Shown here: positions 7,072-57,412 of the stretch, in pieces
Layout: every line of letters begins with the position of its first letter
How positions within the stretch are numbered: the stretch's first letter is position 1
Assembly: GCA_044356215.1 (NCBI GenBank)
Contig: JBIKWQ010000007.1
Span: forward strand, 77-64,076
Direction of reading: 5' to 3'
DNA from: Bdellovibrionota bacterium
GTDB taxonomy: Bacteria; Bdellovibrionota_C; UBA2361; OMII01
Length of the DNA: 64,000 nt
The notes under the pieces: generated by a model
What the model saw: the letters and a program-made list of their open reading frames with translations, nothing else
Databases searched by the model: none
What the model was told of the DNA's origin: nothing
Position numbers and translations under genes: made by a program

Positions 7072-7437
7072 ATGGGACAGGTAAGGTTGCCGCTGTTGAA
7101 CATCGCCGCGATTTTTACAGGGATAATCTGCTTTGTGGCACCCGCCATCTCAGCCGCGCAGAATTCAGATCCCTCCGCTGGCTACAAGGTTTATCTTATG
7201 AGTGGCGCCAGAATGTCGCGGGCGACCAGCATTGGAAACGATCTCCAGGAATTTAAGCAGCGCCCACGCCAAGATTACAAACTGGCTAAGAAGCCCATAG
7301 CGCCAAATCTGGAAGATATCGGCCTGGACTTAAAAGGCTCGAACTTCTCAAAACGCAACGAACTGGACTCTTTCAATATCCAACCTTGGGCGCCAGGCCG
7401 CGGGGCTGTAGGGGTTAAGGTTGAGGTGACTTGGTAG
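7072..7437 (+). CDS. small secreted hypothetical protein
   Basis: ORF with an N-terminal signal-like hydrophobic segment. Confidence 0.3.
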   Translation: MGQVRLPLLNIAAIFTGIICFVAPAISAAQNSDPSAGYKVYLMSGARMSRATSIGNDLQEFKQRPRQDYKLAKKPIAPNLEDIGLDLKGSNFSKRNELDSFNIQPWAPGRGAVGVKVEVTW

Positions 7438-7439
7438 GA

Positions 7440-7599
7440 TAGGGCGTCGCAGTGTTTTTGGTAAGTTGCTGAGACAATGAGTAAAATATTTTTACCACAG
7501 AGGACGCAGAGGACACACAGAAAACCCCATAATTGCCCATAAAATCGCCGTTCTCTGTGTCCTCTGCGCTCTGTGGTGATAAAGAACTGAAACGCCCTA
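7440..7599. repeat. MITE-like palindromic repeat, family A, copy A1 (160 bp)
   Basis: Terminal inverted repeats tAGGGCGTCGCAGTG...ACTGaaACGCCCTa. Internal long hairpin ACCACAGAGGACGCAGAGGACACAGAGAA / TTCTCTGTGTCCTCTGCGTCCTCTGTGGT. Flanked by direct repeats TTGGTAGGA / TTGGTAAGA, which look like a 9-bp target-site duplication. The element ends 50 bp upstream of recQ. Confidence 0.8.
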
Positions 7600-7649
7600 T
7601 TGGTAAGATTCCCTAGACTTCCCCCCTGTTTTTAGCGAGTATACCTGGC

Positions 7650-17433: not shown

Positions 17434-17595
17434 CATGGTGTCGCAATGTTTTTGGTAAGCCAATGGGATAATTGGCAAAATATTTTTTACCACAGAGTAC
17501 GCAGAGGACACAGAGAAAGCTTCATAATTGTCAATAAAATGACTTATTCTCTGCGCTGCCTGCGTCCTCTGTGGTGAAAAGAACTGCGCCGCCCC
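17434..17595. repeat. MITE-like repeat, family A, copy A2 (162 bp)
   Basis: Same internal hairpin and TTTTGGTAAG...GAACTG architecture as A1. Flanked by a perfect 10-bp direct repeat ACAAGAGTTG at 17424-17433 and 17596-17605. Sits about 80 bp upstream of fabD. Confidence 0.8.
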
Positions 17596-17676
17596 ACAAG
17601 AGTTGAGGGTGGCTTGACATCTTATCGCTCAAAACAGATGATCCGTGGTGTTCAGAACTTAAGGAATAAATTTGCT

Positions 17677-37335: not shown

Positions 37336-37398
37336 ATACATAAAGCCCCGTTACTGTAGCACGGCCAGCGCAGGGGTTCAAATCCCGGCGCTCTAGCC

Positions 37399-37561
37399 TA
37401 GAGCGTTGCAGTTCTTTATCACCACAGGGGACGCAGAGGACACAGAGAATAGGCCATTTTATTGGCAATTATGGAGTTTTCTCTGTGTCCTCTGCGTCCT
37501 CTGTGGTAAAAATACTTCATTAATTATCCCAGCAGCTTACCAAAAACACTGCAACGCCCTA
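37399..37561. repeat. MITE-like repeat, family A, copy A3 (163 bp, inverted orientation)
   Basis: TAGAGCGTTGCAG...CTGCAACGCCCTA termini. Flanked by a perfect 9-bp direct repeat GCTCTAGCC at 37390-37398 and 37562-37570. Lies about 63 bp upstream of the tRNA-Gln 5' end. Confidence 0.8.
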
Positions 37562-37659: not shown

Positions 37660-37975
37660 GGTCAATCCCTAAATAGGCTTTACACGTAAACGTGCTCGTG
37701 CTCGTGAACGGCACCCCGTATAACGTCGATGTGCACGTTTAACGTGTTTCGTGCACGAGCAGGAGCACGACAGTCGTTAGGGCGTGGCAGTTCTTTATCA
37801 CCACAGAGGACGCAGAGGACACAGAGAACGGCCATTTTTTGGGCAATTATGGGGTTCTCTCTGTGTCCTCTGCGTCCTCTGTGGTAAAAATATTTTACTA
37901 ATTATCACAACAGCTTACCAAAAACATCGCGACGCCCTGGACAGACGTTTACAGGCACGAGCATGCAAACGTGGA
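37660..37975. repeat. MITE-like repeat, family B, copy B1, interrupted by family-A copy A4
   Basis: Starts GGTCAATCCCTAAATAGGCTTTACA, as in B2. Internal inverted repeats CGTGCTCGTGCTCGTGAACG / CGTGCACGAGCAGGAGCACGA. The continuation after A4 (ACGTTTACAGGCACGAGCATGCAAACGTGG) matches the B2 right half. Confidence 0.6.
37779..37939. repeat. MITE-like repeat, family A, copy A4 (about 161 bp), inserted inside family-B copy B1
   Basis: AGGGCGTGGCAG...CGCGACGCCCT termini. Flanked by GACAGTCGTT / GACAGACGTT, a 10-bp direct repeat with one mismatch. Confidence 0.8.
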
Positions 37976-39881: not shown

Positions 39882-39889
39882 TCCTCCCC

Positions 39890-46717: not shown

Positions 46718-46880
46718 CAGGGCGTCGCAGTGTTTTTGGTAAGCTGCTGGGATAATTGGTAAAATATTTTTTACCACAGAGGACGCAGAGGACACAGAGA
46801 AAACCCCATAATTTACCGTAAAATTGCCGTTCTCTGTTTACTCTGCGTCCTCTGTGGTGATAAAGAACTGCGACGCCCTA
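46718..46880. repeat. MITE-like repeat, family A, copy A5 (163 bp)
   Basis: cAGGGCGTCGCAGTG...ACTGCGACGCCCTa termini with perfect 13-bp inverted repeats. Flanked by TCAACAAGA / TCAACGAGA, a 9-bp direct repeat with one mismatch. Confidence 0.85.
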
Positions 46881-46915
46881 TCAACGAGAGCTTTGCTCGC
46901 CTCCGGTAAGGCAAA

Positions 46916-47431
46916 CTACGCCGCCTTAAGCCTAGCTATCGCCTGCTTCACAGCCTCAAATGCGTCATCCTCGCCTACCTCAACCGAGATAGTCGATACA
47001 GGCTCCCCGGCTGTTGGGCGCTCCAAAGTAGCGAACTGGCTATCGAGAAGCGATACCGGCATATACTCATGCTGTCTCTTCAACATCCGATCGCGGATTG
47101 TCTCCTTGCTGCCATCTAAAAACATGAAGTGAATGCCGTCATTGAGGTCTTTAGCCAGACGCTCTCTATATACTCGCTTGAGCCCTGAGCAGGTTACAAC
47201 GCTCCACTCGACATCGATCGATTTCATCGCGTTGTTGAGACGATCAAGCCACGGCCATCGATCATCATCATTGAGCGGAATCCCAGCGCGCATCTTCTCC
47301 TTCATCTCAGGAGTATGAAACTCATCGGCCTCGATCACTCTGCAGTTAAGATACTGAGCTGTTCTAGCGGCTAAAGTAGTTTTGCCGCACCCACAAACAC
47401 CCATAAAGACGAGTCTGATACTTGATTTCAT
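46916..47431 (-). CDS. gntK: gluconokinase (shikimate/gluconate kinase family)
   Basis: P-loop MGVCGCGKTT and GntK-like length of 171 aa. Confidence 0.7.
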   Translation of the reverse strand: MKSSIRLVFMGVCGCGKTTLAARTAQYLNCRVIEADEFHTPEMKEKMRAGIPLNDDDRWPWLDRLNNAMKSIDVEWSVVTCSGLKRVYRERLAKDLNDGIHFMFLDGSKETIRDRMLKRQHEYMPVSLLDSQFATLERPTAGEPVSTISVEVGEDDAFEAVKQAIARLKAA

Positions 47432-54331: not shown

Positions 54332-54625
54332 GTGAAAGACTATCTAAACATAGATCAGGTGACACTAGATCATATGAGGAGCTTAGCCGTTAGGCTGGAT
54401 CCGGGTACGCTAGCTTTTTATCTGCGAGTTCCGCGCAACCAGGTCGTGTTAATTCAGGCTTATTTTGAGCTGTATGATGGAGTAGGCACCGTTCGCACCT
54501 TCGCGGGAAATGAGCCGGTGCTTTGCGTTATGACGACTGACGGAATGCTAGACGATTGCATCGGGACATTAATGGCGCTTCGGGAGGAGGTTAGTTGGGA
54601 GATTACGGGGTCAATCCCTAAATAA
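54332..54625 (+). CDS. hypothetical small protein (97 aa) whose last codons and stop lie inside repeat B2
   Basis: ORF 16 bp after gatB. Its C-terminal GSIPK and TAA stop are encoded by the left inverted repeat of family-B element B2. Confidence 0.4.
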   Translation: MKDYLNIDQVTLDHMRSLAVRLDPGTLAFYLRVPRNQVVLIQAYFELYDGVGTVRTFAGNEPVLCVMTTDGMLDDCIGTLMALREEVSWEITGSIPK

Positions 54626-54799
54626 GCTTTACAGTATTTCCCGCGTGCTCGTGCTCGTAAACGAGAAACGTACCCGAATTAAGGGTCCTGCAGAAGCCGA
54701 GCTAAGATGTCAGAAGTGGCAAATCGGGTACGTTTACGAGCAAGTGCACGAGCACGTTCACGTGGGATTGACCATGTAAAGTTTATTTAGGGACTGACC
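54609..54799. repeat. MITE-like palindromic repeat, family B, copy B2 (191 bp)
   Basis: 25-bp terminal inverted repeats GGTCAATCCCTAAATAAGCTTTACA / TGTAAAGTTTATTTAGGGACTGACC. Internal inverted repeats CGTGCTCGTGCTCGTAAACG / CGTTTACGAGCAAGTGCACGAGCACG. Confidence 0.75.
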
Positions 54800-56832: not shown

Positions 56833-56980
56833 GGAAACCCAACTCGGGGGTAAGATGCTGGGTAGGGTTGTGGTAGAGATAGAGTTTGCATATAGCAGCC
56901 GTAAACGCAAACGTCCGTCGTGCACCTGCTCGCGCACGAAAACCTGAAACGCTTATATCGACTACGCACTTAGTTTTATT

Positions 56981-57412
56981 TCCACCGCAGGGGACGCGGG
57001 ATCGGATATCGAGAATGTGACCCTTTGCTAGTAATCCAGACACCCCCTCCTCGTCCTCCGCGTCCTCTGTGTTAAAAAAATATCCGCTACATCACTGAAG
57101 TACTCCTCAGCGAATCACGATCGCAGCTCGCAATTACCAAACTTAGCTTTCTCAAGAGCCTGAACTTTTTATTTTACCGCAAAGGACGCAAAGGACACAA
57201 AGTTCGCTTTATGTAGCGGCGAAGATTCCGCTCTCAGTATTTTTATTCTCAACGCTGAGTACGCAGAGGACGCGAAGCCGGATATCGGCCATTCGACCCG
57301 TCACTAAAGATCCAGACACCTCCTCCTTTGTGTCCTTTGGGTCCTCTGTGTTAAAAAAATACCTGCTGCAGTACTCAAGTACCCCCCAGCGAATCACGAT
57401 CTCCGATCGGAA
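56981..57412. repeat. block of two degenerate tandem units (period about 275-280 bp) related to family A
   Basis: Repeated segments GACGCGGGATCGGATATCG / GACGCGAAGCCGGATATCGG, ATCCAGACACC(C)CTCCTC, GTCCTCTGTGTTAAAAAAATA and GCGAATCACGATC. Inverted arms ACCGCAAAGGACGCAAAGGACACAAAG / CTTTGTGTCCTTTGGGTCCTCTGTG resemble the family-A hairpin. Confidence 0.6.

Follow-up and report, generated by a model that had tools for sequence, protein, structure and literature searches.

The sequence at 46718-46880 is one of several closely similar palindromic segments located between genes, and the question it raises is what kind of repeat this is and how its copies reached their present positions. The stretch of DNA analysed, referred to here as the window, comprises 64,000 nucleotides of a 64.4-kb metagenome-assembled contig, and its nearest named homologues are in MAGs labelled 'Pseudomonadota bacterium'. 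The evidence described below led us to conclude, with a probability of roughly 0.9, that the family is composed of non-autonomous DNA transposons (MITEs) of about 163 bp that are mobilised in trans by a transposase. Elements of this kind are well known in bacteria (PMC3184786, PMC10969869), and the family is a new one among them.

The initial annotation described five full copies in 64 kb, and all of them were present at approximately the coordinates given at the time (Table 1). When the window was searched with nhmmer, using a profile from 22 copies, exactly five full copies were detected and there were no further fragments carrying terminal inverted repeats (TIRs). Beyond the five copies, the profile matched only hairpin-related sequences at 56975-57362. 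All five copies are 160-163 bp long and non-coding, and together with their flanks they could be aligned over the full length with a mean column identity of 83%; the value for the 22 copies was 89%. A3 had already been recognised as inverted, but A4, which is inverted as well, had been missed. The placement of the copies is strictly intergenic. A2 separates fabD from a divergent M16-like peptidase gene, and the right end of A3 is oriented towards tRNA-Gln, encoded on the minus strand. The distances first reported to recQ and tRNA-Gln were correct, while the one to fabD, about 80 bp, is dependent on the start codon. A single ORF of at least 100 aa overlaps a copy (46824-47132); its start is within A5, it extends beyond the element on the strand opposite to that of gluconokinase and, therefore, no ORF is contained in any copy. 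The insertion point of A1 coincides with the stop codon of a 121-aa ORF, whose current TAG stop comes from the left copy of the duplication; the right copy keeps the TAA that is also present at the empty site of a relative. A3 is located directly after a motif that resembles a tRNA T arm (GGGGTTCAAATCCC, 37372-37398), just upstream of tRNA-Gln and on the opposite strand. This motif is kept in relatives (L096, L099), and no tRNA was called at it by ARAGORN.

Table 1. Positions of the MITE copies and of the features associated with them. Coordinates are those of the window unless a locus is named; duplications are given as left / right copy, followed by the number of matching positions.
Feature	Position	Strand	Length	Duplication	Remarks
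MITE copy A1	7440..7599	+	160 bp	TTGGTAGGA (7431-7439) / TTGGTAAGA (7600-7608); 8/9	50 bp before recQ
MITE copy A2	17434..17596	+	163 bp	CAAGAGTTG on both sides; 9/9	most diverged copy
MITE copy A3	37399..37561	-	163 bp	GCTCTAGCC on both sides; 9/9	63 bp upstream of tRNA-Gln
MITE copy A4	37778..37939	-	162 bp	GACAGTCGT / GACAGACGT; 8/9	nested in a copy of repeat family B
MITE copy A5	46718..46880	+	163 bp	TCAACAAGA / TCAACGAGA; 8/9	between gluconokinase and a 208-aa ORF
Internal hairpin of A5	46773..46858				arms 46773-46801 and 46830-46858, loop 28 nt
Promoter-like site, left arm of A5	46736..46765	+			TTGGTA, 18 nt, TAAAAT; consensus match
Repeat family B, copy	54609-54799
Repeat family B, partial copy	37660-37778				resumes after A4 (37949 to ~38000)
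Repeat family B, copy	L085 2339-2510
Bacteroides finegoldii hairpin	L001 1508-1688
Bacteroides finegoldii hairpin	L002 1515-1702
Group II intron in a MITE copy	L058 451 to ~1115	-			left flank of this copy differs from that in L065
Group II intron in a MITE copy	L065 38-123				left flank of this copy differs from that in L058

The consensus of the 22 copies is 163 bp long and consists of a 55-nt left end, an 86-nt hairpin module and a 22-nt right end. The left end includes the terminal repeat YAGGGCGTCGCAGT (CAGGGCGTCGCAGT in the consensus), followed by GTTTTTGGTAAG and an A/T-rich stretch that takes up 29 nt of the consensus. The hairpin is formed by two 29-nt arms and a 28-nt loop, and the right end is essentially terminal repeat only (GATAAAGA and ACTGCGACGCCCTA). 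The consensus ends are CAGGGCG at the left and TAGGGCG at the right. TIRs of about 13 bp had been attributed to all copies. They are perfect in A5 (AGGGCGTCGCAGT), but the left end of A2 (ATGGTGTCGCAAT) has three mismatches. Allowing up to two mismatches, AGGGCGTCGCAGT occurs 11 times in the window, against a mean of 1.5 in shuffled sequences, and nine of the 11 occurrences are at element ends. Eight of them come from the two ends of four copies and the ninth from the right end of A2; the A2 left end is outside this count. The 29-nt hairpin arm was found eight times in the window with up to three mismatches, and not once in the shuffles. The loop had been estimated at 35-40 nt, a figure that must be corrected to 28-29 nt. 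The arms of A5 are organised in 9-nt tandem units (CAGAGGACG / CAGAGGACA / CAGAGAA), and the predicted folding energy of the whole element is -79.2 kcal/mol as RNA (z = -10.9) and -44.6 kcal/mol as DNA. No compensatory changes or covariation were observed in the hairpin among the 22 copies because the family is too young. Two copies (L066 1237-1390 and L070 13076-13229) each lack exactly one 9-nt unit (CAGAGGACG, in the 5' arm), as if slippage had occurred among the tandem 9-mers of the arm.

Direct repeats flank all five copies in the window, as had been proposed. Two of the pairs are perfect and the other three match at 8/9, and the chance of finding at least 8/9 at the same spacing in the window is 3.1e-4 per site. 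Their length, originally given as 9-10 bp, is 9 bp; the 10-mers described at A2 and A4 take in one terminal base of the element. When metagenomes were scanned with the left-end 20-mer, 43 loci were obtained; about 33 of them are copies of the element, and two correspond to A1 and A5 of the window itself. Lake metagenomes contributed 17 further insertion sites, and 23 distinct sites were available in total. When the copies were aligned in strict register, duplications of at least 8/9 were found at 12 of the 23 sites (seven perfect and five at 8/9; P ~1e-36), and a 1-base shift of the element end added three more, i.e., 15/23 (nine perfect, six at 8/9). No recognisable duplication was present at six of the 23 sites (L044, L054, L062, L068, L070 and L072), which could be explained by recombination between copies, deletion or assembly chimeras. 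In the case of L068, the left flank is common to L056 and the right flank is different, a pattern suggestive of an assembly chimera or of recombination between copies.

A close relative permitted the comparison of filled and empty sites. The contig JGI Ga0214921_10000274, which was fetched via three proteins, has a DNA identity of 81-97% to the window. Its site corresponding to A1 is clean and unfilled, with the target TTGGTAAG present once (L185; ...GGTAAC TTGGTAAG TTCC..., also read ...GTTGAGGTAAC-TTGGTAAG-TTCC...). The spacer at this location is 53 bp in the relative and 212 bp in the window, where the element lies between two copies of the target. A3 and A4 are both missing between tRNA-Gln and tRNA-Glu of the relative (L096-L098), and the flanks around A3 can be aligned. 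At the A5 and A2 loci the relative has different genes, and the filled/empty comparison covers A1, A3 and A4. In the orthologous sequence of the relative, some 60 kb, a profile search detected not a single full copy, compared to five in the window. In strains that are 99.4% identical, A4 is present, and the A3 end is also found in the one contig of that identity that reaches far enough upstream. Since A4 interrupts a copy of repeat family B, it is a nested insertion. The low divergence among the copies indicates recent activity, and the observations fit a young family whose copies are related by descent. The duplications at the metagenome sites, the A1 empty site and the absence of A3 and A4 all bear out the transposase-mediated mobilisation with target duplication that the initial annotation put forward. 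Family B itself is a repeat of about 190 bp with 25-bp terminal inverted repeats (GGTCAATCCCTAAATARGCTTTACA) and inner inverted repeats of the CACGTG/GTGCACGAGC type, and no clear target duplication was seen for it. In one of the 99.4% identical strains (L085) family B has an additional copy, at window position 39882, and is therefore polymorphic too.

The mechanism that we propose requires a transposase encoded elsewhere in the genome. This enzyme would bind both terminal repeats, excise or copy the element, and join it to a target cut with a 9-bp stagger, the repair of which would generate the 9-bp direct repeats. We infer that it would be a DDE transposase, possibly of the ISAs1 family. The window was said to have no cognate transposase gene and, in agreement, no transposase family is among the Pfam/NCBIfam matches listed (in one scan, 25 of 122 families). 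No autonomous element with the same terminal repeats was found in the window or the fetched loci, and the plasmid collection contained no matches to the element ends. The exact terminal repeat was absent from 185,579 species-representative genomes, in which an 18-nt terminal pattern produced 38 single matches, scattered over unrelated phyla and in the estimated chance range. With the exact repeat in no species-representative genome or plasmid, to call the family unnamed was fair. The four terminal repeat matches in viral contigs were all at chance level, and the true left-end matches in metagenomes were all MITEs or MITE derivatives.

The families initially considered as sources of the transposase, IS4, IS256 and IS1, were not supported by any test, and the CAGGG termini fit ISAs1 better. 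The ISAs1 family generally has CAGGG termini and generates 8-10-bp duplications (ISfinder). The left end CAGGG and the 9-bp duplication of the MITE match these features and would point, weakly, to this family. One of its members, ISArsp11, has the IRL CAGGGCTGATGCAAAGTCG (CAGGGCTG...) and a 10-bp direct repeat (PMC6305408 Table 3). Its ends start with CAGGGC, as do those of the MITE, and the duplication range is 8-10 bp, but the terminal repeats of both elements diverge past the first six bases. The link to ISAs1 thus comprises 5-6 terminal bases and the size of the duplication, and an ISAs1 transposase gene flanked by the MITE's terminal repeats was not found in representative genomes, metagenome or viral contigs. 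Therefore, ISAs1 should be taken as a lead to the partner and not as a statement of membership.

Other explanations for the repeats must be weighed against transposition. Strongly palindromic sequences that are strictly intergenic and contain the CGTC tetranucleotide, in this case within the terminal repeat and the arms, are reminiscent of REP/BIME sequences, which would be structural or would have spread by a RAYT-type (Y1) mechanism, the flanking repeats being coincidental. However, tagged REPs are by definition palindromes of 20-40 bp in which one end carries an unpaired tag, GTAG or CGTC (PMC3733652), unlike an element of about 160 bp with terminal inverted repeats. The 9-bp duplications at 12-15 of the 23 sites and the A1 empty site with its target present once largely refute this explanation, to which we give almost no credence; the argument originally made against REP-like repeats held, with REP/BIME failing on size, terminal repeats and duplications. 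It is also very improbable that the copies are genes for small or regulatory RNAs, or terminators, under selection at gene boundaries. The very stable fold would agree with such a role, as would the promoter-like site in the left arm, which has a TG before the second hexamer and is directed through the hairpin to the right end. Furthermore, of 21 independent sites, 16 have the right end directed at a downstream gene in the same orientation (P = 0.027, with ORFs, not curated genes, as the reference). On the other hand, no U-tract follows the hairpin on either strand, the second promoter hexamer varies among the copies, and covariation is absent. In Rfam searches of the MITE no family reached the threshold, and the sub-threshold matches were generic long hairpins (microRNA precursor models). 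The copies are absent at the orthologous sites of the relative and, consequently, they are not conserved genes. For a transposon, the promoter-like site is a possible remnant of a transposase promoter, and it may read out into downstream genes. A promoter role of the copies is a weak hypothesis because the analysis of orientation is ORF-based and the second hexamer is not conserved.

An alternative of a different nature, compatible with the MITE reading, concerns the 86-nt hairpin. This could be an independent module, kept for a function (as a protein-binding, RNA-processing or structural site) or mobile itself, that the MITE merely spreads, a proposal that we find possible but doubtful. When the plasmid collection was searched with the whole element, the hairpin alone was matched, in other phyla. 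Intergenic hairpins of Bacteroides finegoldii have arms (CACCACAGAGGACGCAGAGGACACAGAG / CTCTGTGTCCTCTGCGTCCTCTGTGGTG) identical to the MITE arms over 27-28 nt, and loops of 100-130 nt that are unrelated to each other. Near-identical arms are nested in another hairpin in Gemmatirosa (Gemmatimonadota; L100 402-491), and the 22-mer CCACAGAGGACRCAGAGGACRC is present in 82 viral (phage-like) contigs with 43-71% G+C (IMG/VR, L103-L182), often as one isolated arm that has 2-5 9-mers in tandem. The arms follow a pattern of 9-nt tandem units, CCACAGAGGAC-R-CAGAGGAC-R-C..., and the loops or cargo found between arms across phyla are unrelated, with sizes from 25 nt to 2.8 kb. Also in favour of a module are three hairpin units at 56975-57362 of the window, with arms related to but different from those of the MITE hairpin (for example, CCGCAAAGGACGCAAAGGACACAAAG). 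They have no MITE terminal repeats, end in ...CTCTGTGTTAAAAAAATA, and are kept in the relative (L093 17519-18052). At L079 2158-2300, the MITE left arm, after ...TTTTTACCAC, is joined to a hairpin of this variant type and there is no right terminal repeat, which suggests exchange or recombination at hairpin modules.

The rate of change of the arms was also distinctive. Among the 22 copies, the differences from the consensus per site were 0.018-0.019 in the hairpin arms, 0.068 and 0.088 in the outer 14 nt of the left and right terminal repeats, 0.089 in the left spacer and 0.123 in the loop. Compared with the loop, the spacer and the terminal-repeat tips, then, the arms are 5-6 times slower to change, and P was 5e-14 when the 3' arm, which played no part in the selection of copies, was compared with the loop. 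The loop is more central than the arms and, therefore, assembly repeat collapse does not explain the slow arms. The recurrence of the arms and their slow change suggest a sequence-specific constraint that is unassigned to any described element. Nonetheless, slow arms could also reflect repair templated by the other arm of the palindrome, the lack of compensatory changes is unfavourable to a functional module, and many of the viral arms are single, meaning that pairing is not always kept. No target duplication surrounds the Bacteroides hairpins, and none of the 128 ORFs flanking the arms in viral contigs revealed a linked protein family. The idea that the arms flank four-helix-bundle or other small genes was rejected, as it found no support in these 128 ORFs or in the Bacteroides loci. 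A literature search by sequence string returned eukaryotic primer matches only and no paper on the arm sequence. That the MITE carries a foreign hairpin module, i.e., a separate undescribed functional or mobile unit, is accordingly offered as a tentative idea that we would rather doubt than accept. If it were true, the MITE would be one vehicle of the module, which might, for example, be bound by some factor of wide distribution, or might itself be a very small element that inserts into the loops of hairpins.

As a MITE, the element can be compared with others of its kind. Correia elements (NEMIS) of Neisseria are MITEs of about 100-160 bp that adjoin genes and whose ends can supply promoter elements. 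Their transcript is a long hairpin, and they have 26-bp terminal repeats and a TA duplication. The MITE described here is similar to these elements, which are in the list of PMC3184786, in its size of about 100-160 bp, its location next to genes and its long hairpin, but the sequences are unrelated, and promoter activity is documented for Correia elements and only guessed here. The nearest known system in size and features, as far as the available accounts describe it, is Nezha, a MITE of Anabaena variabilis and Nostoc sp. PCC 7120 that has been tied to ISNpu3 (Zhou, Tran and Xu 2008, via PMC3184786, PMC6042816). In these accounts, Nezha resembles the present family in its size class (about 130-170 bp), in having terminal inverted repeats and direct repeats at its flanks (one of 10 bp reads CATTATCTAC), in the high stability of its predicted fold, and in the occurrence of filled and empty sites between close relatives. 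They differ in the host, cyanobacterial for Nezha and an uncultured freshwater bacterium in this case, and the duplication here is 9 bp. The terminal repeat occurs in no representative genome, cyanobacterial ones included, and, by this indirect comparison, the family is therefore not Nezha by sequence. A cyanobacterial origin of the window was rejected as well, considering its G+C content of 49.7%, only 4 HIP1 sites, the names of its nearest homologues, and the presence of PpiD, a PrsT-like TPR protein and PdxS. Chunjie, from Geobacter uraniireducens Rf4 (Chen et al. 2008, via PMC3184786), compared by its description in that source, also has terminal repeats, 9-bp direct repeats and an intergenic location, but it is 178-235 bp long, with 21-bp terminal repeats and another host.

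The element is routine as a MITE, and its hairpin is the part of possibly wider importance, on account of the distant phyla, the phage-like contigs and the slow arms. Five insertions in 64 kb, none of them at the comparable orthologous sites of the relative, represent a recent burst in an uncultured lake bacterium. The MITE is useful as a strain marker, and it explains contig breaks in this lineage because many metagenome contigs end inside the element. It may also alter the expression of recQ, fabD and tRNA-Gln. Two further copies (L058 and L065) contain a group II intron without an ORF (Rfam RF00029, 46.8 bits) inside the 5' arm of the hairpin. An 813-bp 'long' element in L058, considered as a candidate insertion sequence, was rejected when it proved to be a MITE holding this intron. 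The MITE hairpin may be a target of group II introns.
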